Of a stretch of DNA of 64,000 nt, positions 3,381 through 46,173 are shown one piece after another. Numbering within the stretch: position 1 is the stretch's first letter; each line of letters starts with the position of its first letter. The notes under the pieces were generated by a model, which searched no databases, was not told where the DNA came from, and saw only the letters and a list, made by a program, of their open reading frames with translations. This stretch comes from Klebsiella phage vB_KpnM_KB57. The DNA is taken from the sequence record NC_028659.1, one strand, 5' to 3'. The position numbers were made by a program, and so were the translations under genes.

Positions 3381-3575
3381 ATGATCCGCACAAAAATTCT
3401 TATCGCAGCATTGCTGCTCTCTTCTCCGGTATTCGCAACTGTAAACACTCTCGATTTGGTTGATGAATATACCAACGGCAGCTCTAAGGTCTGCGTTTAC
3501 AGCGACGGTCATCGAACAGAGACTGTAACAAAAGATGGCGCTGGTTCTTGTCCAAGTAAGAAAACATTTCATTGA
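3381..3575 (+). CDS. small secreted protein
   Basis: N-terminal signal peptide MIRTKILIAALLLSSPVFA; RBS AAAGGAG. Confidence 0.5.
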   Translation: MIRTKILIAALLLSSPVFATVNTLDLVDEYTNGSSKVCVYSDGHRTETVTKDGAGSCPSKKTFH

Positions 3576-3582
3576 GGGAATA

Positions 3583-4089
3583 ATGCGAGTAACTGATAAA
3601 TACGTCTTTTTCTTCACTTACCGGGATATGTTCAGTAATCACTACCGCCAAGTTATTCCTATTCGTTGTGGTGGTTACGAGTTTTTCACTGTAGAACATT
3701 ACATGATGTTCCAGAAGGCAATGCTCTTCGATGACAAAGAAATTGCTTCCCGTATCGCTACGGTTGATAACCCTAATGAGGCCAAAGCTCTTGGTCGTCA
3801 GGTAAAAGGTTTCGACAACAGCGTCTGGGAAGAAAATAGAATGGATATAGTGACTTCAGGTCTTGTATTGAAAATGAAGGCCAACAGATCTGTTCTCGAA
3901 GCTGCTCTTGGGCATCGAGATGCTGGGCGTAAGTTTGTGGAAGCCTCCCCTTATGATGCCATCTGGGGTGTTAAATTAAACGAATATGACACACGTATCG
4001 ATGACCCAACCAACTGGCGTGGTTTGAATCTTCTCGGTAAGTGCTGGGAACGAGCTATTGATATTGTTGTTGCTGCAACGTGGAGGTGA
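3583..4089 (+). CDS. NADAR (YbiA/DUF1768) domain protein
   Basis: GGYEFFTVEHYMMFQKAMLFDD...EASPYDAIWGV matches NADAR conserved blocks; start at ATG 3583 after GAGGGA. Confidence 0.65.
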   Translation: MRVTDKYVFFFTYRDMFSNHYRQVIPIRCGGYEFFTVEHYMMFQKAMLFDDKEIASRIATVDNPNEAKALGRQVKGFDNSVWEENRMDIVTSGLVLKMKANRSVLEAALGHRDAGRKFVEASPYDAIWGVKLNEYDTRIDDPTNWRGLNLLGKCWERAIDIVVAATWR

Positions 4090-4528: not shown

Positions 4529-5658
4529 GAGGGCTAGTGGGATATCCGTATGATAAAGATTGGAAAAATAAAGTCACAAAAGACTGCGTATTAGCTTTGG
4601 ATCTCGACCAGACATGCTTTGTATCAGCCGCTGGTGCTGAAAAGCGTACAATTGAGGTCACTCACATTGAGTCTGGAAGAACAAAGATTTTCAAAAACAG
4701 GACTGAGTTTTGGGGATCGACAAAGAAAGTTGTCGGTGGATGGATCAAAGACCAAAACATGAACATGGAGGCGAAGGCAAAGGCCGAAGGCCGAGTGTTT
4801 GTACCGTGGGGTAGGGATGACTTCACGATTAAAGACATTCAGGAACCGGAACCTGTAGAAAACTGCCTTCATATCCTGAAGACAAAGATCAATGCTATCT
4901 TTGAACACCTTGAGATGGAAAGCAATACAGGGATGGGTGTACTTGGTGGTGAGGGTAACTTCCGCCTTATGCTCCCAGCTCCAGAGCGTTACAAGGGTAA
5001 TCGTGAGGATACATTACGCCCACTCCTTCTTCAGGAAACAAGGGATTATGTTACCCGGAAGTATAACGCTAAGGTGATCAATGGTGTTGAAGCAGATGAC
5101 TATCTGTCTGTTCTTGCTTATATGGGGTGGGAGAATTACCAGAAGACCGGGAAGTTCAACTACATCGTGGCATCGTTTGATAAAGACCAGAAAGGAAACC
5201 CTGGGCTTATCTTCGATACTATGCGCGATTCAGAAGAGAAGACATGGAAGCACCCGATCCCTATGTTGATCGACGATTCGATGGGAGAGATCTGGATGGA
5301 AGGTAGTAAGGTCAAGGGATGGGGACGTAAGTTCTTCGGTTACCAGATGCTTTGCGGTGACAGCTCAGATAACATCAAGCCTTACCAGTGTTTCGATATC
5401 GCTGGACGTTTCGGTGATACGGCGGCATTCAATCTGATCGGACACCTTCAGGATGAGAAATCCATGTGGCAAGCGATCATTAACCAGTATAAAACCTGGT
5501 TCCCGAACGGTGTTGAGTTTACTTCGTGGGACGGCACACAACGGAAAATGAGTGCAGGCCAGTGGGCATCTATCATCTTCCAGATGGTCTACATGAAACG
5601 TTCTGCAAATGATAAGACAACCCTTTCAAGCGAGTTACGCCGTGTGGGGGTTATATGA
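4525..5658 (+). CDS. FEN-like 5'-3' exonuclease (T5 D15 / Pol I 5' nuclease family)
   Basis: YKGNR, GVEADD and GDSSDNI motifs match flap endonuclease catalytic and H3TH blocks. Confidence 0.6.
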   Translation: MRGLVGYPYDKDWKNKVTKDCVLALDLDQTCFVSAAGAEKRTIEVTHIESGRTKIFKNRTEFWGSTKKVVGGWIKDQNMNMEAKAKAEGRVFVPWGRDDFTIKDIQEPEPVENCLHILKTKINAIFEHLEMESNTGMGVLGGEGNFRLMLPAPERYKGNREDTLRPLLLQETRDYVTRKYNAKVINGVEADDYLSVLAYMGWENYQKTGKFNYIVASFDKDQKGNPGLIFDTMRDSEEKTWKHPIPMLIDDSMGEIWMEGSKVKGWGRKFFGYQMLCGDSSDNIKPYQCFDIAGRFGDTAAFNLIGHLQDEKSMWQAIINQYKTWFPNGVEFTSWDGTQRKMSAGQWASIIFQMVYMKRSANDKTTLSSELRRVGVI

Positions 5659-35398: not shown

Positions 35399-35426
35399 AA
35401 GGGGCCTGAAGAGGCTCCTTTTCTTT
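35399..35426 (+). terminator. intrinsic terminator
   Basis: GGGGCCTGAAGAGGCTCC hairpin plus TTTTCTTTT. Confidence 0.55.
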
Positions 35427-35453
35427 TATCTAAAGTGGCACATCAATTTCTCT

Positions 35454-35481
35454 TGACCTGAAGTGTACAGTCGATTATACT
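35454..35481 (+). promoter_or_regulatory. promoter TTGACC-16-TATACT
   Basis: drives the small ORF 35511-35630. Confidence 0.55.
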
Positions 35482-35510
35482 CCTCTCATACAAAACACGA
35501 GGAGAATTCT

Positions 35511-35630
35511 ATGGACGACACGGGTTTCTTATTACTGGGGATGCTGATTACAGCGTTCCTGATCCTTATCCCTTACGGGATGATGTTGTACGTATCTATT
35601 GGGCCAGTGGCTAAGAAGGACGATTGTTGA
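35511..35630 (+). CDS. 39-aa hydrophobic peptide (single TM)
   Basis: GAGGAG RBS 6 nt before ATG 35511; MDDTGFLLLGMLITAFLILIPYGMMLYVSIGPVAKKDDC. Confidence 0.45.
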   Translation: MDDTGFLLLGMLITAFLILIPYGMMLYVSIGPVAKKDDC

Positions 35631-35670
35631 GACTGCTATGCGGCTGACCACACAAAAGGGTTGACGTAAA

Positions 35671-35699
35671 CTGTCAGCCCTGTTATGCTTTATGTAAGC
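35671..35699 (+). promoter_or_regulatory. strong promoter TTGACG-17-TATGCT with TTATGTAA box; no ORF downstream
   Basis: same extended motif CTGTTATGCTTTATGTA as the promoter at 58271. Confidence 0.55.
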
Positions 35700-36809
35700 C
35701 ACATCTCCTGAAGCTGGAGGATACAATCACCACTCCTGCGTGAAAGGTTGTACATCCTGTTAACACACAATCTGAAGTGACTTACCGATATGTCGATAAA
35801 GCACCCTTTCATAAACACATTGCCGTAACGTGTCGATGCCATAAGCATGTCTGAAGTGGCCTCCGTTTTCTCCACATAACCACCCCCGCCCCCGTGGGGA
35901 AATCAAAACATGCCCCTGCCGAAAATATCACTTGCCGAAAATATCTGTCTGGGTGTTTTGGAGCATTCGTACTGTCTGAGGTGCTAGACGGACAGCTCCG
36001 GGCGTCAACTATCTTTACGGATCTTTACAAAATATCATGGGCAAGGTCGATCCGGTCCCCGGTTCCTCGGGGCCTCTTCAGGAATGAAAGTTACTTGCCG
36101 AAACTAATAATAATCAAATGTGACAGATAGCAAGCATATGGTTTGCCAGCTTAGAGCACGATTTGCTATTGACTTGTTTATATTTGTGTGAATTACGCCA
36201 TTTAACATAAAACACGTTATACGCACTAGCTAACAACACATAGCAAGCTAATAATGCCCCAGTGTTACCAGTGTGACGCATAGGCCAGTCGCTTCAGGTC
36301 ATTACATGGTGTGACTGTTACTGTGGTGATAGTTTCATGTGTGATTATTCATGTTTTAGGGTTGTTTTGTGAATGAGACGACGAATGAGAATCATTACTA
36401 TTTCGATTTCGAATTCAATTTCGAAATGAGAATCATTCCGCAAATATAAATATTTTGTAAATTTATAAATAAAAGCTTGACAAGAGAAGAGAATCGTGTT
36501 TAGCAATACATACTCTTTGAGCATCATTATCATTTGCGACTAATTCCCATCAACCCCGTTACGGACCGGATACCCGGCAATGCTAAAGCATTGAAATAGT
36601 TACAATAAGTAACTATTTTCTTTATTGCTACGCAAGGGATTGATAGATATTTTCGATAATAAAAACACTTGACAGTTTACACTTCTTCCATGCTCAAAAT
36701 CAGGCCTTTCCATAGGCCATAGGCCCACATTAGCAAGTGATTTATTGCTATTTGTCAATCATTAAATTTCATTTAATCACATAATAATAACGGGTTGTTA
36801 CCATCACCA

Positions 36810-37013
36810 GCGACACAATAACACGGGAGCGATCACGCAGGGCGTGATCGGTGTTATCGTGGCGATGTGATAAAATAAGTTTGCTAATCATTACGGATGT
36901 AATGATCTTAATGATAACAATTTTCATTCGCTCTTAGGCGTCTACGAGCCACGATAACGCGAACGAAAATGATAAGTATTATCATTTGAGTTACTCCCGT
37001 GTTATTGTGTCGC
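36810..37013. repeat. 204-bp nested palindrome (three concentric inverted-repeat pairs around a central 8-bp hairpin)
   Basis: IR A 36810-36829 / 36994-37013, 20/20 bp; IR C 36853-36863 / 36948-36958; hairpin B 36830-36850; central palindrome ATCATTACggatGTAATGAT 36887-36906. Confidence 0.7.
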
Positions 37014-37384
37014 TCGCTACGCTCGCGCCACTCCCCACGATTACGCGAACGATTTTTATTTGACAAGATTTTATTTTTATGCTCAATAAAACCAGTTCAC
37101 ACAATAGGTTAGATGATAAAAGTTATCATTTGAGAGTGATTCTCACAGTATGCATACATAATGCTTAAAAATGCATGTTTTATTCAGTTAATAACATGCG
37201 TTATTAATTGTTGGGGTTGTTAGGTAGGGCCATACCCTTTTAAGCGCAATATGCGCCATTCTGAGAGGCTTTATCTCTTACCCTGGCTAGTGGGTTACCG
37301 CCTGGAGATCTCGATTATGCAGGTTTTAGTCACCTATCACTTTTTGATTATTGATTGATAAAACCTAAAGTATAAAAACACAAA

Positions 37385-37405
37385 AGCCGGGAGTTACCCG
37401 GCATT
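37385..37405. terminator. bidirectional intrinsic terminator
   Basis: GCCGGGAGTTACCCGGC flanked by A-run and T-run. Confidence 0.6.
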
Positions 37406-37427
37406 ATTTTTGGGGAGTGGTGGAACC

Positions 37428-37691
37428 TTACAGCGCGATTGCCAGCAGGCCAGCGACCACGAAAGGGAGATCATAACGATCTAAACGCTTAAAGCGATTA
37501 AGTTTAATCAGGGTGTAAAACGTTAATTGTAAAACATCGATCATGGTGTTAAACCCTTGCGCCGTTGTTTCCGTCGTTACCAGGCCGACAAGGCAGTTAA
37601 AACACGTATTAGACACTAAAGCAATAAGGCAAGCCAGCAGGGTAGCGCGTAAAATGCTTGTTTTGCTTACAGTGTAAATCATGTTTGTCAT
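37428..37691 (-). CDS. membrane protein
   Basis: 87 aa with TM helices. Confidence 0.5.
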   Translation of the reverse strand: MTNMIYTVSKTSILRATLLACLIALVSNTCFNCLVGLVTTETTAQGFNTMIDVLQLTFYTLIKLNRFKRLDRYDLPFVVAGLLAIAL

Positions 37692-37945: not shown

Positions 37946-38049
37946 ATTTATTTACCTTCGGTTTTGCGGGTTGGTTATCTTCCCGCTCTGAAATAAATAA
38001 TAGTCGAAAACATCTGGCGAGGCAAGCGTTTTGCCTTTTCTTTACAACC

Positions 38050-38262
38050 TCATTCACTGATTAGTTTAAATTCCGCCTCAGGGTGATAAAGATCAGCCAT
38101 ATAGCGAGTTTTGTAATAGAAAGATACTTCCACAATGTGAGGCGCTTCGATTTCTATTTGTGTGATGAGGACGCTACCCGGCTTAAAGCCTGGTGCAATG
38201 TCCGGTAACTCAATGACCATTCCGCCTTTTAATTCCTTCGCTTTTACAGTTCTCATGATCAT
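38050..38262 (-). CDS. hypothetical protein
   Basis: 70-aa ORF. Confidence 0.4.
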   Translation of the reverse strand: MIMRTVKAKELKGGMVIELPDIAPGFKPGSVLITQIEIEAPHIVEVSFYYKTRYMADLYHPEAEFKLISE

Positions 38263-38492
38263 TAACCTTTTTTGCGTTTAATTACTTTTATTACTTTAAG
38301 GCCCTTTTGTTCTAAAAACTCCGGGCGGCGCAATTGTGCGGCGCTGCTACGGCTTTTCACCTTGTTAGACAACACGCCATAATAGCTACCGTCCTCATAC
38401 TGCCCGATGAAATAAAAATCATTTACGCCATATTTCTCATCTCCTGCCTTCTGGATGATTTCGGCTAACTTGTCAACACTAATATTAATCAT
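38262..38492 (-). CDS. hypothetical protein
   Basis: 76-aa ORF; hairpin GGGGCGCTAGCGCCCC just upstream of its RBS. Confidence 0.45.
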   Translation of the reverse strand: MINISVDKLAEIIQKAGDEKYGVNDFYFIGQYEDGSYYGVLSNKVKSRSSAAQLRRPEFLEQKGLKVIKVIKRKKG

Positions 38493-38539
38493 AATTGCTT
38501 TACCTCAAAGGATAACGGGGCGCTAGCGCCCCGGTTTGA

Positions 38540-38869
38540 TTATTTGTTAAGCTCTTTATATTCAGCGATCCAGCGGGTAAAAATCTTATGTTGCTTTTCT
38601 GCCGCCGCTTTTGTTCTATGTGAGATAGCGGTGATATACCAACAATCCGCAAGGCACCAACCGGAAGAATGAAAAATCCAAGGATAATTTGAATCCGCCG
38701 CTTTAAGTTTCACGATCTTCTCTTCTGGCTCGCTATGTGTGAAGGCCTCGATCTCGTTTGCTGTATACTGGCGATCCTGTCGCTTGATTCGATTTCCAAT
38801 ATGATCGAAAGTGTAGTTGTGTGATTCTAGATGATTATCCAGCATTTTAAAGAATTCTGATTTAGTCAT
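38540..38869 (-). CDS. hypothetical protein
   Basis: 109-aa ORF. Confidence 0.45.
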   Translation of the reverse strand: MTKSEFFKMLDNHLESHNYTFDHIGNRIKRQDRQYTANEIEAFTHSEPEEKIVKLKAADSNYPWIFHSSGWCLADCWYITAISHRTKAAAEKQHKIFTRWIAEYKELNK

Positions 38870-38944
38870 TGTTTTTTACCTCTTTTGATTGTTGGTGATA
38901 ACTTATCAAAAGGCGCTCATCTAAACGCCTTTTAATCTGTTAAC

Positions 38945-39304
38945 TTAGTTGCTTTCTGTAACGTCTACCCAAAGAGCTAAATCAATAACGCCTTTTTCTT
39001 TAATCTTTTGCAGGAGGCGATCAGCGCGATCAGAGCTATTGATATAATAATCAAAATCTTGTCCGGTCTCTTCGTCTGTCAGTGATTCAATTCTACCGAT
39101 AATCACACGATCAAGAGCATAAGTTTTGTTAGTGTACCAGTTAGTGAGACGAATTTCACATTTGTAATCGTCGCTCGGGCCGTCCAGGGTAACGACGTCG
39201 ATTAAATCGCCTTTGAAAACTGACAGTGACCACATCGGATCATGATCTACTACGCCGCCAAAATCTTTACCTTTAACAGTAGAATTCAGATTGATGATAG
39301 TCAT
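38945..39304 (-). CDS. hypothetical protein
   Basis: 119-aa ORF. Confidence 0.45.
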   Translation of the reverse strand: MTIINLNSTVKGKDFGGVVDHDPMWSLSVFKGDLIDVVTLDGPSDDYKCEIRLTNWYTNKTYALDRVIIGRIESLTDEETGQDFDYYINSSDRADRLLQKIKEKGVIDLALWVDVTESN

Positions 39305-39352
39305 TTTCGTTTACCTCGTTAAGTTGTTTTCGTTTGTTTGCCCTACGAGATA

Positions 39353-39382
39353 AATAATAATATAAGCGGGGATCGCTGTCAA
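39353..39382 (-). promoter_or_regulatory. promoter TTGACA-17/18-TATTAT (minus strand)
   Basis: reverse complement reads TTGACAGCGATCCCCGCTTATATTATTAT. Confidence 0.5.
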
Positions 39383-39569
39383 TAGCTCTTTACGTATCTT
39401 TACATTATTCACTTTTTGCATCTTTATGCATCGCTATGCAATTGATTTCATGGTGAAATTACTTTTTAGCTGTTTTCCCGTGTCAAGTTGTTTTTATATG
39501 GCCTTTAAACGTCCTGTAACGAGTTTTAAGCGGTTTTTCGTCCAGGCTGTACCCTAGTCCATTTTATCG

Positions 39570-39600
39570 GAGATCTCGCCATATTCACTATTTTGCATAA
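39570..39600. repeat. 31-nt intergenic element GAGATCTCGCCATATTCACTATTTTGCATAA (copy 1)
   Basis: identical 31-mer at 43250-43280; flanking ~150 bp also similar. Confidence 0.7.
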
Positions 39601-39750
39601 GATTTTAGGCGTTGTTGAGAGTAATTCTCATTACCGGAATAGCGGGCACCTCCGGTGACTTTCCTCCGGTGTCCATCGTTGCCGCTTCAAACAAAGAATA
39701 GCAAAAACCAGGACCGAAAGCAAGCCCTGGAATTGTAAAGATTTTACCTA

Positions 39751-40218
39751 TCATGCCAGGCCGGATCTCTTCGCCTTTGCAATGTCGGAATATAATTTTC
39801 TAAAGTATGCCGGGCCTCGCTCGTTTACTCTTACATATTCATCACGCGCCGCCACCTGGAGATCGTCGGGTAATAATCCATGATAACCACTGTTAACAAT
39901 AGCGATCCGTTTTTTGTTGCAATCATAGTAGACATATGATCCATCGGCTAGATAAATTGTGCAATTCTGCCGGATGTAGGGGATCAAATAAGCCTCGCCC
40001 TGGTGCCGGATTTTGTAAAGCGCCATTTGTCCATTGTAGATCCGGCGGACGTGATAGGGGTCATTAATTGCCCGGTGAATGTTTTCCTTCCAGGCGTTGC
40101 GAGCGTTGCCAACATTACGGATCAGCGCTTCCACCTCGGGGATCACCACGTTAGCGCGGGCGGCGGCTTTTGCCTGGTCTGATAATTCATCGTAATAAAA
40201 CATTCGTACACTAATCAT
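39751..40218 (-). CDS. hypothetical protein
   Basis: 155-aa ORF. Confidence 0.45.
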   Translation of the reverse strand: MISVRMFYYDELSDQAKAAARANVVIPEVEALIRNVGNARNAWKENIHRAINDPYHVRRIYNGQMALYKIRHQGEAYLIPYIRQNCTIYLADGSYVYYDCNKKRIAIVNSGYHGLLPDDLQVAARDEYVRVNERGPAYFRKLYSDIAKAKRSGLA

Positions 40219-40359
40219 TTTTGATTCCTATAAACGGAAAATGTGGGAGGTCGGCGGGGCGAAGGTGCTGACTTCGAACCCACTCGCCAGACATGAGGAC
40301 CAGGACACGGGAACCCCGCCAGCGGTATCGATTCCCGTTTAAAACGTTGACGTAAATGA

Positions 40360-40587
40360 TCATGCGCCGTAAAGGCCATCACCATCAAAATCATCCTGAA
40401 AAAATGACAGATATTCGAAAAACTCGAATTCCATCGCTACCGTATGTTTTACCAGATCGGTGTTTGCATATTCAGCGGGTGATAACCGGATCGGCGCGTC
40501 ACTATATAGGTCAGTAAGTTCGATGTATTCACCGACTTTTTGAGCGGTCACCGTGTTTTTCTTGTTGTTAAAAATTACTGTTTTCAT
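40360..40587 (-). CDS. hypothetical protein
   Basis: 75-aa ORF preceded by a hairpin-SD cassette. Confidence 0.45.
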   Translation of the reverse strand: MKTVIFNNKKNTVTAQKVGEYIELTDLYSDAPIRLSPAEYANTDLVKHTVAMEFEFFEYLSFFQDDFDGDGLYGA

Positions 40588-40640
40588 GGTTTACCTTCCA
40601 GGTTATGCCGGGGACGTTCCCCGGCTTGTCGGCGAGTGTA

Positions 40641-40901
40641 TTAGAGCGCTTTTTCGATATCACTTAAAATCTTTTTGGCCAGGTCATAGCCTACATTCAG
40701 ATCCCGCGTGATATCCTCGGCTAACAGTTTACGGCCTACGTTGCCGAAACTTAGCATTCTTTTAACTTCCGGTAAACACTTACCCCAATAATTATAACAG
40801 GAGTTACCGATATATTTTGAATAAAACGCGTTATCGTTGCGAACTCCACCCAAAACAGCGACATTAACAGAGATAACGTGTTTAAAATTGTGCTTTTCCA
40901 T
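40641..40901 (-). CDS. hypothetical protein
   Basis: 86-aa ORF. Confidence 0.45.
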   Translation of the reverse strand: MEKHNFKHVISVNVAVLGGVRNDNAFYSKYIGNSCYNYWGKCLPEVKRMLSFGNVGRKLLAEDITRDLNVGYDLAKKILSDIEKAL

Positions 40902-41247
40902 TTTGGTTTACCTTTTCGGCTTGCCGGGGAGGTATTCCCCGGCCTCAAAAAGATATTAACCGATCCGCGACTGGCTTGCAAGCGTTTTTATTTAATAATT
41001 ACGCCCACGTTTTAGCATAAGAAAACAGGTCAGAGACATAGCCGCGATAGCCGCCGGGGCGTTTTGCCTTTGCGTTGCGATACCATGCGACAATTACAGA
41101 TCCGCCGCTTGTCACGCCACCAAAAAACCTTTCATCTCCGCTTCGCCAGCTTCCACCCATTGCCCACGCTGTAAAGTTTTAGGATCTACGTTGTCGGCCA
41201 AAATGTTAACAGTTTTTTGATATTTAGCCATCTTTTATTTACCCCAA

Positions 41248-41571
41248 TTAGTTAGCACGGAAAACATCGTTAACAATAGCCGTTGTAAACATCCAGACTA
41301 GATCCGGGGTAGTTATAGGCAGGCTGTCAGCCTGTTTTATTGTTACTCCGCTTCTTTCAAGCGTGTAGGCGATAAAATGACGGTTTTCAAGTTTCCCGCT
41401 ATGGGATTGAATGGATTTTTCAGTGCGGATCAGGACAGTTAAACGGTCAGTTTGTTCGCTGTCATTCTCATGACAAAATACTAACATGGTTTTTTCACCC
41501 TGGCGATTAAAGTCGCAATTAACATTATCGTTAACATTTTCCAGAAAGAAAAATTTGTTTGCCTTTTCCAT
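41248..41571 (-). CDS. hypothetical protein
   Basis: 107-aa ORF. Confidence 0.45.
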   Translation of the reverse strand: MEKANKFFFLENVNDNVNCDFNRQGEKTMLVFCHENDSEQTDRLTVLIRTEKSIQSHSGKLENRHFIAYTLERSGVTIKQADSLPITTPDLVWMFTTAIVNDVFRAN

Positions 41572-41642
41572 ACTATTTTACCTTTTTGTTAGTGGGCCAA
41601 TCTTGCCCGGTCCAAGTAATATAACCTAACCGGGCCGGGGGA

Positions 41643-41846
41643 TCAATGATTATTTTCGCTTTCCGGCATCGGTTCGACTTCCGGCGATGGTATGCAGGCC
41701 GGATTAATCCAGCGCCCCTGGCGCTGATAGTCGACGGCGACGATCTCGCAAGTCAATTGATCATCATAGCTTTCTACTACATAATCATCACACTGTTTTA
41801 AAGCCAGCGCACCATAAAAGCACATACCCGCGAATACTTCAAACAT
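41643..41846 (-). CDS. hypothetical Cys-containing protein
   Basis: 67-aa ORF. Confidence 0.4.
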   Translation of the reverse strand: MFEVFAGMCFYGALALKQCDDYVVESYDDQLTCEIVAVDYQRQGRWINPACIPSPEVEPMPESENNH

Positions 41847-41856
41847 GATCGTTACC

Positions 41857-42099
41857 TTACTTTTTGAGGGTGAGAATAGGGCGCTTATCGCCTTCTTTAA
41901 CGCCGGGGTCTAACTCATCGCAGATCCCGATCTGCTCGCCTTTGCCTAACGTGTATTCGTTTTCGTACACGTTGCAAGCCTGTTCCGTGGGGAATGTTTT
42001 TTTAACATTCCAATCACATTGTAATGCCATCGAACTAACAGAAATATGACAAGCCAATATAATAAATCCAAACATGGTAGCCGCCTTAATGGGGCGCAA
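41857..42099 (-). CDS. small secreted protein
   Basis: N-terminal signal-like hydrophobic segment. Confidence 0.45.
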   Translation of the reverse strand: MRPIKAATMFGFIILACHISVSSMALQCDWNVKKTFPTEQACNVYENEYTLGKGEQIGICDELDPGVKEGDKRPILTLKK

Positions 42100-42113
42100 G
42101 GCCCCGCTATTGA

Positions 42114-42473
42114 TTATTTGTTGATCTGGTTTGTCTGATTATAGATCCCATATTGAACACGGGACACGGTAACAGATTGAGGGAGTAAGCAACGAACACG
42201 ATCCGCGCGGTTGTCATATTTTTTGATATGCGCCGGAGTATTGTTGCGGGTAAACTTCACGCGTAAACGTAATTTATTGGGATCGCGATCATCGATTCCG
42301 GTTACCACGCCAAAAGCGATTTGACCATAGTTATGATACACCATTTTACCCAGGAATTTTGATTCAAGATCGGCGATGTTAGATTTTACGTTTTGCATGT
42401 TATTTACCTTTTGGTTATTTGTTTCACTTGTCAATGTCTGGGAATTGTAAGCCCAGACATTAACCAGTGTCAA
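42114..42473 (-). CDS. hypothetical protein
   Basis: 119-aa ORF. Confidence 0.45.
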   Translation of the reverse strand: MTLVNVWAYNSQTLTSETNNQKVNNMQNVKSNIADLESKFLGKMVYHNYGQIAFGVVTGIDDRDPNKLRLRVKFTRNNTPAHIKKYDNRADRVRCLLPQSVTVSRVQYGIYNQTNQINK

Positions 42474-42476
42474 CTG

Positions 42477-42728
42477 TTATTTTACGCGTTTAACCAATTC
42501 CCAGACACTGGCCGCCTCTTTACTGTTAAAGTATTGATCCCACCAAGAAAAATCATTAACAGCAAGAGCATATTTTTCGGCGCTTTCTGCCGTGTTAAAA
42601 ACTTCGGGTGAGTACCTGCAATTACCTTTTTCATCCGTGATCAACACGTCATAAGTTCCGTCCCCAAAATCCGAGGAGATATCACGAATAACGATACCAG
42701 GTTTTTTGATTTCATTTACAATTGTCAT
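42477..42728 (-). CDS. hypothetical protein
   Basis: 83-aa ORF. Confidence 0.45.
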   Translation of the reverse strand: MTIVNEIKKPGIVIRDISSDFGDGTYDVLITDEKGNCRYSPEVFNTAESAEKYALAVNDFSWWDQYFNSKEAASVWELVKRVK

Positions 42729-42816
42729 ATCTTTACCTTCCAGCTAGTGGCGGGACCTATTCCCGCCTTATTGAGAATAATAGGCCTTTTTGTCAACAAT
42801 TAAAGACAAAATTTTT

Positions 42817-43014
42817 CTAGTTCTGACTCACGAAAAAGGAAATTATCCAGCCCTTTGCCACATTTGAGCACTCAAAAATCCATTTACCATTTGAATCTTT
42901 CCAAGCGCGATTAATCCCAACATAACAACAAAATTCAGAACTATAGGCCGTTTTATACATGTTTTGCTTTTCCATAGTGTTTACCTTTTTCAGTGTGGCG
43001 GTGAATTCCGCCAC
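42817..43014 (-). CDS. hypothetical Cys-rich protein
   Basis: 65-aa ORF. Confidence 0.4.
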   Translation of the reverse strand: MAEFTATLKKVNTMEKQNMYKTAYSSEFCCYVGINRAWKDSNGKWIFECSNVAKGWIISFFVSQN

Positions 43015-43249
43015 TGATTAAAGGATAGCATAACGCCGCCAGGATGCAACAAATATTTTTAAGAATTGTTGAGAACTGTTCTCATATGCAGTGATGTGCA
43101 TAGAAAATCGCTGTTATGCAATTAGTTTCAACCGGTAACTAAATTTGTGGCGTTTTTAGCGGGGCGCGGTTATCGGATACCATCTAAAACGCCCTCAAAT
43201 CGATTCTAAGCGCTTCAATGTGTAACCCTGGTAAGTGCATTGCTGCGCT

Positions 43250-43280
43250 GAGATCTCGCCATATTCACTATTTTGCATAA
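43250..43280. repeat. 31-nt intergenic element (copy 2)
   Basis: identical to 39570-39600; abuts the terminator hairpin 43288-43306. Confidence 0.7.
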
Positions 43281-43287
43281 AAAAGCC

Positions 43288-43306
43288 GGGGAATTATCCC
43301 CGGCCT
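43288..43306 (-). terminator. intrinsic terminator
   Basis: GCCGGGGATAATTCCCCGGC plus TTTTTT on the minus strand. Confidence 0.65.
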
Positions 43307-43308
43307 GG

Positions 43309-43524
43309 TTATTCACCTGCTACGGCGTATCGCTGCAAATTACGTTTACGATCCGCAAGGCGTTTATTCAACTTCGGATCATACTGGTCCGGCGACCATT
43401 GAACCGCGATCCGTTCCGGCTTATGCCGTTTGTTGTTACGCTCGCGCCGTTCATTAGTCTCACCAAAAGCAAGGCGATCGCGCTGGCTTGTCATCTTCTC
43501 AAAGTTGCGGCTTTTTGCTGTCAT
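43309..43524 (-). CDS. small basic protein
   Basis: 71 aa, Arg/Lys-rich. Confidence 0.45.
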   Translation of the reverse strand: MTAKSRNFEKMTSQRDRLAFGETNERRERNNKRHKPERIAVQWSPDQYDPKLNKRLADRKRNLQRYAVAGE

Positions 43525-43861
43525 ATCTTGATCCCCTGTGGTTGTATGTTTCCGCTCGCCATTCCGCGATCTGTTTTTTGCGATATTCGATCAGCTCTTC
43601 GATGTAGTCGAAGGATCCCTCTTTATGTACCAGGACCACGCCGCCCCGGTGTTTAATCTCACAAATCAGGCCGCTACCCTCCAAATCATTTAACGGCCCG
43701 GATCGCCTGGTGTGGTACTCCTCCCCCTGGAAGCGATATTCTATATAGTGGAACATTGTTTTAACCCTGTACCAGTAGTAAAACCATTTTACAACACGCC
43801 AGATCCTGGCGTGAATTTTTGCATAATAACAAAATATGAGTAGAATCAAAAATTCTTTCAT
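43499..43861 (-). CDS. hypothetical protein
   Basis: start coupled to the upstream stop; an internal ATG (43756) is an alternative. Confidence 0.35.
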   Translation of the reverse strand: MKEFLILLIFCYYAKIHARIWRVVKWFYYWYRVKTMFHYIEYRFQGEEYHTRRSGPLNDLEGSGLICEIKHRGGVVLVHKEGSFDYIEELIEYRKKQIAEWRAETYNHRGSRYDSKKPQL

Positions 43862-43862
43862 A

Positions 43863-44258
43863 TTACGCGGCGCTGTTTTTAAATGGCTTATCCCACGATC
43901 CGAACTGTAGATCGATATAGTGACCTACATTAAAATAGTCTGTCATGATGTCGCTTCTATCATAATTATCAGTGTTTAGCGCGTTGATGATTTTTTCAAG
44001 CGTTGCGGTGAACTCTTTATCACTCGAATAAGTATGAGCATGATAATGGTTAATATTGATATATGTAAAGCCGTCCGGGTATCCTTCTTTAACTGATTTA
44101 TGATCCATTTTAGACACAAGATCAAACGGCCCGGATCGGATAGTGCAAACAATAGTTGAATAGTGACGGATCGCAAATGTTGCTTTCCAACCTTTTGGCA
44201 ATACAGCTTTTACCGCTTCGACAATTTTCGCTTTCTTCTCTTTATTCATGTAGGCCAT
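43863..44258 (-). CDS. hypothetical protein
   Basis: 131-aa ORF. Confidence 0.45.
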   Translation of the reverse strand: MAYMNKEKKAKIVEAVKAVLPKGWKATFAIRHYSTIVCTIRSGPFDLVSKMDHKSVKEGYPDGFTYININHYHAHTYSSDKEFTATLEKIINALNTDNYDRSDIMTDYFNVGHYIDLQFGSWDKPFKNSAA

Positions 44259-44317
44259 TTTGTTTACCTTTTAGGTTATGCCGGGGACAATTCCCCGGCT
44301 TTAATCAGTATAGCGGT

Positions 44318-44830
44318 TTAAAGAATCTTTGCAACGTCTTTATAAGACCATGCAAAAAGAGAATTTTGTTTACCTGGTGCAACTTCCGCCAGACGTCCAG
44401 CAAATCGGGCGCGGTTATGCGGGAACTCAAAGACTACCACGCGCCCGGATATCATTTCCACGCGATCACCATTTTTCAGGATCTTGATCCGATCAATCAA
44501 TGCTTTTTGCTCTTTTTTGTATTTAGCATGTTGACGGCAAGCGGCGCGCCAATTAACGGAAAATTCATCTTTTTGCATGGATCGCTTAAGGAATTTTTCA
44601 GGACAGTTGTAATAACACGGGCCGCAAGATTCATCCATGTCTTTATAAAAAACCATACCATCTTTACGGGAAAGAATTGTAACACGAATGTAAAGACTTT
44701 CATCTTTCGCCCTTGCAAGCTGATAAACTTCATTGCCTACAATAGAAGTTTCGATCACGCGGTTATCAGTCAGATAATTTTCAACAAATTTTTTGTTATT
44801 AAGATTAGAATAAATGCCAGTCCAGCCCAT
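44318..44830 (-). CDS. hypothetical protein
   Basis: 170-aa ORF. Confidence 0.45.
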   Translation of the reverse strand: MGWTGIYSNLNNKKFVENYLTDNRVIETSIVGNEVYQLARAKDESLYIRVTILSRKDGMVFYKDMDESCGPCYYNCPEKFLKRSMQKDEFSVNWRAACRQHAKYKKEQKALIDRIKILKNGDRVEMISGRVVVFEFPHNRARFAGRLAEVAPGKQNSLFAWSYKDVAKIL

Positions 44831-44873
44831 GATATTTTACCTCGTTTAGTGTTTAGTTTGTTGGTGCCTGGTA

Positions 44874-44903
44874 ATTATAGGCCCTTTCCGGGCCTGGTGT
44901 CAA
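44874..44903 (-). promoter_or_regulatory. promoter TTGACA-18-TATAAT with a GC hairpin inside the spacer
   Basis: reverse complement reads TTGACACCAGGCCCGGAAAGGGCCTATAAT. Confidence 0.55.
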
Positions 44904-45685
44904 ATGATACGTTCGAATTTATCGAATCTTTTTGCGGATCTGCCGTGAACGTCGATCACGACGTTGGCGCGTTTACCATCGCATAAGCCGCAATCTAAGC
45001 AGCTAATATTGTGAGTGGTATTAACGCAAGTGATCTCCCCTTCCAGGCGTCGCATGTTGGGAGTTTTCACGCGAAAAGTTTTATAACCCTTGCGCCATGC
45101 TGTGATCGCTTGCTTTTCCGTATCAGCGGAGATCTGGCAAATGGTAGCGATCCGATGGTCAAAATTTTTATGGTGGATCTGGTGAGTGTACCCCGTGTTA
45201 CCTTGCGTATGGTTGATCATGTTTTGCCATACCTCAAAAGGGACCGCCGCCGGATCACCGTAGGAACCTAAACGGATATAACGCCCCGCAAAATGTACCA
45301 GATCGCGAGAATCAAGATCTTTATAGTTGCCTTTTTTGTAAGACTTCCAGACTGACAGTGGGGCCTGGTGTAACGTCACATAACAAGCGCCGTTTAAGCT
45401 GGTACGATGGGGACACATACCGCAAACGGATGAATCAAGTTTTTTCGCGCTTGCTTCCAGTGGGCTAACATCTTCTCGCATGATCCAGGTTTGAACCATG
45501 TCGCCTGTTTTATCGTTAGCGGTTGACATTGTAGCAATGACCACGATCGGGGCCTTATCCAGAACTGACGGGCCTTTATATAATACATAACCCTTTTTTG
45601 CTGTGGATTTTTTACCCGGTACACTATGCACGATCTCGGATTCTGAGTTGACAACCAGACCATTATTAAGTTTAAACGTAGACAT
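44900..45685 (-). CDS. hypothetical protein (261 aa)
   Basis: GAGGT RBS; largest gene of the cassette. Confidence 0.5.
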   Translation of the reverse strand: MSTFKLNNGLVVNSESEIVHSVPGKKSTAKKGYVLYKGPSVLDKAPIVVIATMSTANDKTGDMVQTWIMREDVSPLEASAKKLDSSVCGMCPHRTSLNGACYVTLHQAPLSVWKSYKKGNYKDLDSRDLVHFAGRYIRLGSYGDPAAVPFEVWQNMINHTQGNTGYTHQIHHKNFDHRIATICQISADTEKQAITAWRKGYKTFRVKTPNMRRLEGEITCVNTTHNISCLDCGLCDGKRANVVIDVHGRSAKRFDKFERII

Positions 45686-45778
45686 TGCTTTTTACCTCGA
45701 TTTATCGCGGCCCTTGCCGCCTGAGAAAACACTTTATCAAAGGCGCTAACTGAAAGCAAGCGCCCAGGATAAAATATT

Positions 45779-45946
45779 TTATTTAGCCAGGGATAAGGTT
45801 TTGCCGTGGTTGATCCCAGGGATAACCCATTGCCCGGCGCCATCTTTAACAGGTTGACGTAAACGCGCCGCCGTGGTTACCTTGCTGTTAACATTACGGG
45901 CAAAAGCGCGGGCCTGGTCACGGGTAGTAAAAGAAATGTTTTTCAT
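45779..45946 (-). CDS. hypothetical small protein (55 aa)
   Basis: AAGAGG RBS then ATG at 45946 (minus); not in track; the overlapping track ORF 45394-45843 is likely spurious. Confidence 0.35.
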   Translation of the reverse strand: MKNISFTTRDQARAFARNVNSKVTTAARLRQPVKDGAGQWVIPGINHGKTLSLAK

Positions 45947-46173
45947 GTTGTAGCCTCTTCAGTAGTGTAATTTTGTTTTGCCCTGGATTTTGGAGATCCT
46001 CACCTTTCCGGGCCAGATTGAATCCTCATCACTTGCGCTTTACTCCACGCCCCACTATTTCAACCGGGGGCCTTGGATTCACCCCGCCCCGGTGAGATGA
46101 ATATTAAGTGATAGCGATCCCCGCGTCAATCCCCTGGATGAAAATAAATTAAAAATATTTTGTTCGTGTGGGC

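Follow-up and report, generated by a model that had tools for sequence, protein, structure and literature searches.

Why does a tightly packed phage genome keep about 1.8 kb free of recognizable genes where two gene clusters meet? We addressed this question for positions 35640–37420 of a 64,000-nucleotide stretch (the window) of the genome of vB_KpnM_KB57, a Klebsiella phage (NC_028659.1); strands are given below where a feature has one. The original prediction, made from the sequence alone, had proposed a replication origin, a nick or packaging-related site or a structured regulatory RNA locus, and had drawn attention to a large nested palindrome, here called element S. The window belongs to a Mydovirus-like phage of the Vequintavirinae (rV5-like phages). 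The closest matches to the 2.3 kb around the segment are in Mydovirus KpS8, NDO71 and KPP-1 (96–97% identity), and the same 2.3 kb is also matched in Vequintavirinae phages of Klebsiella, Proteus, Raoultella, Escherichia, Salmonella, Cronobacter and Enterobacter. The plus-strand genes on the left stop at 35630 and the minus-strand genes on the right stop at 37428, so that the segment lies between convergent clusters. The curated PVP-SE1 record has 2.27 kb without annotated genes at the homologous gap; in rV5 this gap is 2.6 kb, between gp158 and gp159, and appears in the genome map as a grey box marked 'non-coding', unexplained there (Kropinski et al. 2013; PMC3606486). The reading that we favour, with slightly better than even confidence when its three parts are taken jointly, is that we are dealing with the non-coding end region of the genome in a Vequintavirinae phage whose DNA is packaged with short direct terminal repeats, that the repeat is duplicated through staggered nicks, and that S is a non-coding RNA.

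The ends of the genome could be placed to the base. The direct terminal repeat (DTR), found at both virion DNA ends, corresponds to 514 bp at positions 35987–36500, and three independent sources agree on both edges and on a unique, non-permuted repeat. The record of phage DP (OP296941) carries an annotated 514-bp repeat_region at each end, two identical copies whose place in the window is 35987–36500. The KP12 record has the equivalent of 35987 as its first base and that of 35986 as its last. For KPP-1, twofold read coverage and PhageTerm gave a T7-type 514-bp DTR at 116,316–116,829 (PMC9862379), and these coordinates map base for base, with ggtgcta|GACGGACAG at the left edge and GTGTT|tagcaatac at the right. 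Over the repeat, the window is 94–97% identical to its relatives. A 459-bp repeat is annotated in Gotham, of the genus Vequintavirus, with edges at homologous positions (gctgcct|GGCGGACG and CTTGTC|tgaca), which implies a 459-bp repeat in rV5 too. Judged from these close relatives, in which it was demonstrated, rather than from reads of this isolate, 35987–36500 is the DTR of this phage. The terminal repeat itself is already known, as it was published for the genus (PMC9862379) and annotated in two records. The suggestion of a packaging site thus holds for the segment as a whole, which contains the genome ends and the DTR; the palindrome at 36810–37013 lies 309 nt outside the repeat and is an element of its own.

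Two observations on database records belong here. Those of KP12, DP, Gotham, EdH4 and bov10K2 start at the true repeat edge. Eighteen 'Campylobacter phage' records (MG0656xx; A135, A116, A141, C9, C14, D# etc.) match the rV5 non-coding region with 75–94% identity and look like rV5-like coliphage sequences, either mislabelled or contaminants.

The two edges of the repeat mirror each other. On the plus strand the left cut site (35982–35994) reads TGCTA^GACGGACA, with the cut between 35986 and 35987; its consensus TG(C/T)TAGACGGAC, i.e. TG(C/T)TA^GACGGAC, is invariant in Mydo-, Seuna- and Henunavirus. The right cut site (36477–36505) comprises a first TTGACA module and GTGTT^TAGCA, cut between 36500 and 36501, and across the same three genera CTTGACA and GTGTT^TA(G/A)CA are invariant. 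Read on the minus strand, the right edge is TGCTA^AACAC, so that TGCTA precedes both cuts, on opposite strands. When the two ends were aligned in inverted orientation the score was 36, against 15±7 for shuffled sequences, of which 5 in 1000 reached 36. Inside the repeat, a perfect 12-bp inverted repeat faces both edges: its left arm, TTTACAAAATAT (36024–36035), starts 37 nt inside the left edge, and its right arm, ATATTTTGTAAA (36450–36461), ends 39 nt inside the right edge, both being invariant across genera. The AAAATATC box is found 11 times in the window, and 4 of these copies lie within 35922–36653, mirrored around the repeat. To the same box set belong tandem TGCCGAAAATATC boxes on the plus strand at 35917–35929 and 35933–35945, 42–70 nt outside the left edge, whose CGAAAATATC core is kept in all genera.

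Because the identical TGCTA^ sits on opposite strands at the two edges, we infer a staggered-nick model. Terminase would nick the concatemer after TGCTA, on the plus strand at 35986/35987 and on the minus strand at 36501/36500. The nicks would leave 514-nt 5′ overhangs, and fill-in by a polymerase would provide each genome with a full repeat, in the manner of T7-type duplication. The mirrored AAAATATC and TTTACAAAATAT boxes, and possibly the TTGACA...ATGCTCAA modules as well, may be protein sites that position the cutting. In the literature searched we found no description of this mirrored cut-site architecture or of the rV5 box as genome ends.

To the right of the repeat lies element S (36809–37014, plus strand), a 206-nt four-way junction recognized from its inverted repeats, its fold and its covariation. 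The outer stem pairs 36809–36829 with 36994–37014 over 21 of 21 positions and leaves 164 nt between the arms. It encloses hairpin A (36830–36850), stem 2 (13 bp with one T.G, 36851–36863/36948–36960, including an inner perfect 11-nt pair at 36853–36863/36948–36958) and hairpin C (36962–36992; an AAC/GTT base, a GA/GA internal loop and then 9 bp); stem 2 carries a variable apical part (36864–36947) with a further hairpin at 36883–36905. The AAC/GTT base of hairpin C is invariant and the tandem G.A loop is conserved. The nested palindrome first described as a 204-bp cruciform is therefore real and slightly longer than was thought, with arms of 21/21 instead of 20/20 around the inner 11-nt pair and hairpins. 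As RNA, the plus strand of 36805–37018 reaches a folding energy of -98.4 kcal/mol (z = -10.9), and as DNA one of -63 kcal/mol (z = -11.5); in either case none of 200 shuffled sequences folded as well. Adjoining S is an invariant block, CTCGCTACGCTCGCGCC...CCACGATTACGCGAACGA (37013–37052), in which the CCACGATWACGCGAACGA box, the 3′ side of stem 2, recurs as a direct copy at 37035, outside S. For 36500–37415 as a whole, a long structured RNA was rejected, since outside S RNAalifold gave only weak consensus hairpins with no strand preference; the small conserved ones are those at 37112 and 37189 and the terminator hairpin described below.

Comparison with relatives showed that what is preserved in S is the pairing. 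We aligned 22 distinct homologues, from four genera, taken from GenBank phages, IMG/VR and metagenomes; a scan for the invariant box had returned 8 loci in IMG/VR and 50 in metagenomes, only 6 of the latter being real relatives. The formal pair count covers 21 sequences and 53 pairs and leaves out Erwinia phage pEp_SNUABM_01, whose outer stem MAFFT could not align and which we scored with an anchor-based script. Standard pairs fill 97.6% of the pair cells, and nine pairs are altered on both sides (42 cells). The covariation score was 0.122, compared with 0.053±0.005 for shuffled alignments (0 of 500 reached 0.122) and at most 0.038 when the partners were slid by 1–3 columns. Variants of the outer stem are always matched (GGGAG/CTCCC, GAGGG/CCCTC, GAGAG/CTCTC, TAGGG/CCCTA, ACTATA/TATAGT), and hairpins A and C covary too. 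In pEp_SNUABM_01 the outer stem is paired at 21 of 21 positions with unrelated sequence, while the junction and stem 2 are the same (fold z = -12.4). Thus relatives do not lack the palindrome, and the covariance check proposed with the original prediction finds its helices kept by compensatory changes.

The pairing is also specific for one strand. The non-Watson-Crick cells comprise 34 G.T or T.G and no A.C or C.A; the T.G of stem 2 is invariant in the alignment and becomes C-G in pEp_SNUABM_01. In all 21 homologues the plus strand folds better than the minus strand, by 8–18.5 kcal/mol. That all non-Watson-Crick pairs are G.T on the plus strand points to a single folded strand, either RNA or plus-strand DNA. 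Insertions of 49–52 nt in the homologues fall in loops only, and one of 78 nt is found immediately beyond the left arm. Together, these results show that compensatory substitutions have preserved the four-way junction of S and that its pairing is specific to the plus strand. In the literature searched there was no description of S, of its covariation or of its strand.

Several further observations touch the palindrome and its surroundings. In AV124 and PVP-SE1 the 78-bp insert left of S is flanked by a 13-bp duplication, GACAC(A/T)ATAACAC, of the start of the left arm, and the outer stem is therefore shortened to 18 bp in these two phages. Hairpin-rich cassettes of 49–95 bp occur patchily between genera in the loop of hairpin C, in module 3 between TTGACA and ATGCTCAA, just left of S and at 36560–36625 (in coordinates of each locus stretch, at 5031–5079 and 5177–5229 in phage Mydo, about 2700–2786 in AV124 and about 2680–2762 in PVP-SE1). 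The 36560–36625 block is present in many Mydovirus and in PVP-SE1 and absent from DP, AV124 and most Seunavirus, and several of the cassettes have palindromes of the GAGAATAATTCTC type in common. Their appearance is that of miniature inserts, mobile or brought in by recombination. The SalP219 record (PP595732.1) starts inside S, at about window position 36938 and some 27 nt from its centre, which suggests that assemblers break at the palindrome.

An analogue of S exists in the genus Vequintavirus. Direct nucleotide homology between the window and the rV5 region is essentially none, and the analogue came to light through its position and structure: a nested inverted repeat stands at the same place in the genomes of rV5 and four other members of Vequintavirus. 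Its paired arms match at 18/18, the whole element has three arms, and the rV5 copy folds with z = -10.9; its sequence is almost invariant, beside an upstream flank that varies. In all six rV5-type and Erwinia elements the plus strand is favoured, by 6–12.5 kcal/mol. FV3 lacks the analogue and retains one copy of the flanking 20-bp direct repeat (in locus coordinates, a single GCCATG(A/C)CATTCGTTTGCAT at 1105–1125, where other Vequintavirus have two copies flanking the analogue, as at 3644–3957 in rV5). Palindromes are deleted between direct repeats in E. coli clones, and the loss in FV3 could have arisen either in the phage itself or during cloning or assembly. Taken at face value, FV3 speaks for an accessory role and not for an essential one in cis.

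What, then, might S do? Compensatory change and plus-strand-specific pairing make structured RNA, one of the options raised at the outset, the best reading for the palindrome as far as sequence comparison goes; S is most likely an RNA, ahead of a single-stranded DNA element but not by much. S would be an accessory element separate from the terminal repeat, a non-coding RNA of about 200 nt whose rightward transcription (plus strand) would be driven from the TTGACA modules, with trimming at the 21-bp stem that closes it, and which may act early in infection without being strictly essential. The enrichment of TTGACA on the plus strand (3 copies in the window, 5 in rV5) speaks for an RNA, as do the tolerance of loop insertions, the conserved tandem G.A loop and, with the reservation made above, the absence of the analogue from FV3. 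With more reserve, we propose that S and its rV5-type counterpart could represent a new class of 150–260-nt phage non-coding RNA beside the terminal repeat throughout the Vequintavirinae, defined by a long closing helix, a three- or four-way junction and a tandem G.A loop, and acting in trans at an early stage of infection, perhaps by diverting a host defence or nuclease as a decoy, or else by assisting genome-end processing; we consider this tentative and hold it at well short of even confidence.

The TTGACA modules are not ordinary promoters. The second (36669–36699, plus strand) carries CAGTTTACAC and ATGCTCAAAA boxes that are also present in rV5 (ACTGTTTACATGCTCAATA), and the third (37060–37089, plus strand) carries an TATGCTCAATAAA box, with a 53-bp insertion between the two in phages Mydo and Ro1. 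The sites at 36477, 36669 and 37060 had been taken for strong promoters, and in each the TTGACA is indeed perfect and preceded by an A/T-rich tract, but the hexamers 17 nt further on are TTAGCA, GCTCAA and TCAATA, and the scan called none of them. The test for a sigma70 promoter was a -35 hexamer, a 16–18-nt spacer and a -10 element whose second base is A and whose sixth is T; the genuine promoters found elsewhere in the window do carry a -10 hexamer. Ordinary promoter function was rejected for the modules on this ground and because insertions of 11 or 53 bp split them in relatives.

Several points weigh against the reading that we favour, and some concern the nicks. TGCTA is only five bases long and the likeness between the edges is weaker in Vequintavirus (TGCCT versus TGTCA), and the polarity of the nicks is a predicted one. 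Others concern the RNA. The three TTGACA modules have no -10 hexamer at 16–18 nt, and an 11-bp insertion separates TTGACA from ATGCTCAA in module 2 of LNA4 and EC152; a -35/-10 pair would tolerate neither this nor the 53-bp insertion in module 3. There is no terminator 3′ of S, and the analogue in rV5 and MaxTheCat has a terminator-like hairpin, with TTTCTAT, directly upstream of it. A perfect 21-bp stem would be a target for RNase III, which fits processing and is unusual for a stable RNA. Pairing through G.T alone equally fits a folded plus strand of DNA, and we found no Vequintavirinae transcriptome in the literature searched.

The most serious alternative, which we regard as possible though somewhat unlikely, is that S acts as DNA. 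The plus strand, displaced by rightward transcription or replication near the genome end, would fold into the four-way junction and serve as a stabilizer of an R-loop, as a loading or priming site for a T7-like primase-helicase, or as an architectural element for terminase comparable to lambda cosB, on that side of the cut which serves the packaging of the next genome. The TTGACA/ATGCTCAA, CAGTTYACAC and CCACGATWAC boxes would then be iteron-like putative protein sites. The location of S fits, since 309 nt from the repeat edge is where cis-acting sites are expected. So does the sequence of stem 2, which is invariant and whose box recurs outside S at 37035, and the 11- and 53-bp insertions that part TTGACA from ATGCTCAA come near to a whole number of helical turns. 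The DNA fold, too, is highly significant, long perfect stems are more like DNA hairpin signals than like typical small RNAs, and the G.T asymmetry is compatible with a single folded DNA strand.

Iteron-like arrays point the same way in the rV5 group and less so here. rV5 has at least 10 copies of (C/A)(A/T)GTT(T/C)AC between the repeat edge and the S analogue, and Gotham has an array too, whereas the window holds only 2–3 copies (two of them at 36673 and 37093). We noted that the arrays (rV5 3484–3690 and Gotham 480–590 in locus coordinates) hold (C/A)(A/T)GTT(T/C)AC(A) in numbers from 6 to over 10, spaced 13–16 nt apart, and that GTTTACACA from them matches 8 of 9 positions of the DnaA-box consensus, TT(A/T)TNCACA. 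The simple fill-in of staggered nicks, in turn, never exposes the plus strand at S. FV3, which has no analogue, argues against S as an essential sole origin or packaging site, unless its deletion is an artefact of cloning or assembly, as it could be. The cumulative GC skew does turn at the segment; since the direction of transcription switches there, the turn says nothing about a replication origin. The rV5 genome paper makes the same remark on GC skew and transcription direction (PMC3606486). Of the three options raised at the outset, the origin found neither support nor contradiction.

A second alternative starts from the repeated boxes and the operator-like palindromes. Host Fur or a phage repressor, bound at AATGA-N-TCATT or TGATAA-N-TTATCA, would control early promoters, or the sites would titrate Fur. 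We counted nineteen 19-mers with at least 12 of 19 matches to the Fur consensus, about sevenfold more than in composition-matched shuffles (2.6±1.7), the best being 16/19 at 36965, although overlapping matches inflate this number. Two AATGAGAATCATT boxes inside the repeat (36384–36396 and 36425–36437) are Fur-box-like (12–13/19) and are conserved as sequence, not as pairing; one of them reads AATGATAATCATT in phage 4MG. The best sites behave otherwise. Those at 36965 and 37112 change their sequence in relatives to AATGCGA/TCGCATT, AACGATA/TATCGTT and TGAGAA/TTCTCA, and the hairpin GATGATAAAAGTTATCATTT (37112–37131, plus strand) is kept there through G.T on the plus strand and compensatory changes. 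The best examples put forward as operators (36968 and 37113) thus keep pairing and not sequence, which is the behaviour of a folded strand and not of a fixed operator, and the promoters supposed to be their targets lack a -10 element. Fixed Fur operators were rejected for the best sites on account of this covariation away from the consensus. We think control by operators improbable and treat Fur as a lead suggested by the sequence, not a finding. A promoter-like site on the minus strand (36553–36526, TTGATG-16-GATAAT, 9/12), which points into the terminal repeat toward the left genome end, overlaps a Fur-like 19-mer.

As for the repeated boxes in general, those listed do exist (AATGAGAATCATT twice, an ATGATAAGTATTATCATTTGAG family of four copies, TGCCGAAAATATC twice plus one variant), the CTGAAGTG motif being the weak one. 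It was rejected as a signal because CCTGAAG and CTGAAG are common in coding DNA across the window; this repetition probably reflects codon usage.

The form in which the palindrome was first proposed, a true cruciform extruded from double-stranded DNA with both strands folded, seems to us just as poorly placed as the operators, if not slightly worse. The arms are perfect, the inner hairpin loops of 3–4 nt could nucleate extrusion and the minus strand also folds well (z = -9.8). However, the outer arms are 164 nt apart, loop insertions of 49–52 nt are tolerated, and each of the 34 G.T cells on the plus strand would be an A.C mismatch in the other arm, the invariant T.G of stem 2 being equally asymmetric. 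A symmetric double-stranded cruciform is excluded as the selected form because both pairing and fold energy favour the plus strand.

Small protein genes hidden by a length cut-off can be set aside almost entirely: open reading frames (ORFs) of 55–78 amino acids are present and several GenBank records annotate 'hypothetical proteins' of 30–60 amino acids, but these frames are fragmentary or interrupted by stops in other genera where flanking genes of similar size align end to end, the annotated ones vary in strand and position from record to record, the careful annotations of PVP-SE1 and rV5 leave the region empty, and its indels are not multiples of three. The segment had been said to contain no ORF of 60 amino acids or more, which is literally wrong, as ORFs of 61, 62, 64 and 78 amino acids overlap it. 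It is effectively gene-free nonetheless, because in Seunavirus and Henunavirus these ORFs gave fragmentary tblastn alignments or in-frame stops (a flanking 87-amino-acid gene aligned over its full length), and no small conserved protein gene emerged within it in tblastn against the other genera.

The remaining features lie toward the borders of the segment. On its left, a sigma70-type promoter-like site on the plus strand (35661–35689, TTGACG-17-TATGCT with an upstream TG) passed the scan; no ORF lies downstream of it, its direction is toward the right genome end, and it is kept in Mydovirus and Seunavirus. It had been described as a consensus promoter near 35671 without a coding target; the site and the missing target are real, and its match is good (9/12) rather than consensus. 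A small hairpin at about 35703–35722 follows it, with pairing kept and sequence differing (CTCC/GGAG versus GTGC/GCAC). Between module 2 and S lies an invariant box, TTTGTCAA(T/C)CATTA (36751–36764), followed by a small hairpin of variable sequence. On the right, the plus-strand hairpin TTAATAAC-ATGC-GTTATTAA (37189–37208) is compensated to TTGATAAC/GTTATCAA in Seunavirus. The terminator hairpin GCCGGGAGTTACCCGGC (37386–37402) closes the leftward cluster ending at 37428. Its stem covaries (CCGGG/CCCGG to CCAGG/CCTGG) and here it has T-runs on both strands; the A-run that serves the minus strand is universal, and the T-run on the plus strand, which would also stop rightward transcripts, is confined to Mydovirus.

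ARAGORN found no transfer RNA or transfer-messenger RNA, Rfam gave no match at gathering score in the whole window and only chance-level hits (E ≥ 0.4) in a permissive search of 35400–37500, and Dam (GATC) sites are neither enriched nor depleted in the segment. Just outside it, between 35453 and 35630, a near-consensus promoter (TTGACC-17-TATACT, 10/12) stands upstream of a 39-codon ORF (ATG at 35512) for a hydrophobic peptide, MDDTGFLLLGMLITAFLILIPYGMMLYVSIGPVAKKDDC, the last conserved gene before the right genome end. In the leftward small-gene cluster beside the genome end (38000–46000), GATC is about twice as dense as elsewhere (18–26 versus about 7–14 per 2 kb).

Phages of the rV5 type are often isolated and go into cocktails for therapy and biocontrol. 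No explanation had been offered for their 2-kb 'non-coding' box since the rV5 genome was published; it can now be placed at the genome ends. Exact ends give annotation a rational start coordinate and a reason why assemblies break or circularize here, as well as a defined DNA substrate for studying how a short repeat is duplicated in a large myovirus without a T7-like RNA polymerase. Element S has unusually clean comparative support for a non-coding phage feature, with four genera compared and the strand identified. Should S prove to be an RNA, the structured RNAs of phages would gain a new family; should it act as DNA, it would mark a cis-acting replication or packaging site.

The rV5 'non-coding' box is the nearest known counterpart. 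It shares the position at convergent transcription, between genes 163 and 164 in rV5, the lack of ORFs, the repeat edges, the ATTTAACATAA...GCGCAC block, CTTGACAA, ATGCTCAATA and a nested inverted repeat with 18-bp arms. It differs in that its nucleotide similarity to the window is almost gone, its element has three arms against four here and its long iteron-like array is not found in the window; the paper assigns it no function (PMC3606486). The likeness to T7-type DTRs lies in a fixed, unique repeat of a few hundred bp with defined edges at both ends, in non-coding surroundings dense in short repeated boxes and in the inferred duplication from a single concatemer copy, and the KPP-1 repeat, called as T7-type, is the same sequence at the same coordinates. 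In contrast to T7, the phage here is a 140-kb myovirus, its repeat lies between two convergent clusters and not ahead of an early operon, and mirrored TGCTA^ and 12-bp boxes, as observed here, are not known from T7. No RNA polymerase gene is reported for this phage group (PMC7344957), and the promoter-dependent steps of T7 therefore cannot apply as such.

Other systems offer looser analogies. In lambda, boxes sharing one orientation (cosB) adjoin the terminase cut on its next-genome side, and the three TTGACA modules and the AAAATATC boxes may be comparable, although there is no homology, lambda has 12-nt cohesive ends instead of a 514-bp repeat, and the boxes here are putative binding sites. 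The repeat-rich injection-stop zone of T5 resembles the segment in being 1.5–2 kb without genes near a genome end, with many direct and inverted repeats and palindromes; it differs in lying inside a 10-kb repeat behind pre-early genes, whereas here no gene precedes the zone, and rV5-like phages are not known to transfer their DNA in two steps. The pRNA of phi29, a structured RNA of roughly 170–200 nt, is encoded beside one genome end; a long helix joins its 5′ and 3′ ends, and several helices meet in a junction. S is alike in size, location, closing helix and junction, a resemblance only: S has no sequence or Rfam match to it, phi29 replicates by protein priming and does not cut terminal repeats, and the FV3 deletion weighs against an essential role for S; that S is an RNA, or touches the packaging motor, is a candidate reading. 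Set beside these systems, the whole segment is a real, conserved, cis-acting DTR end region of a known general kind, with one well-supported structured element.

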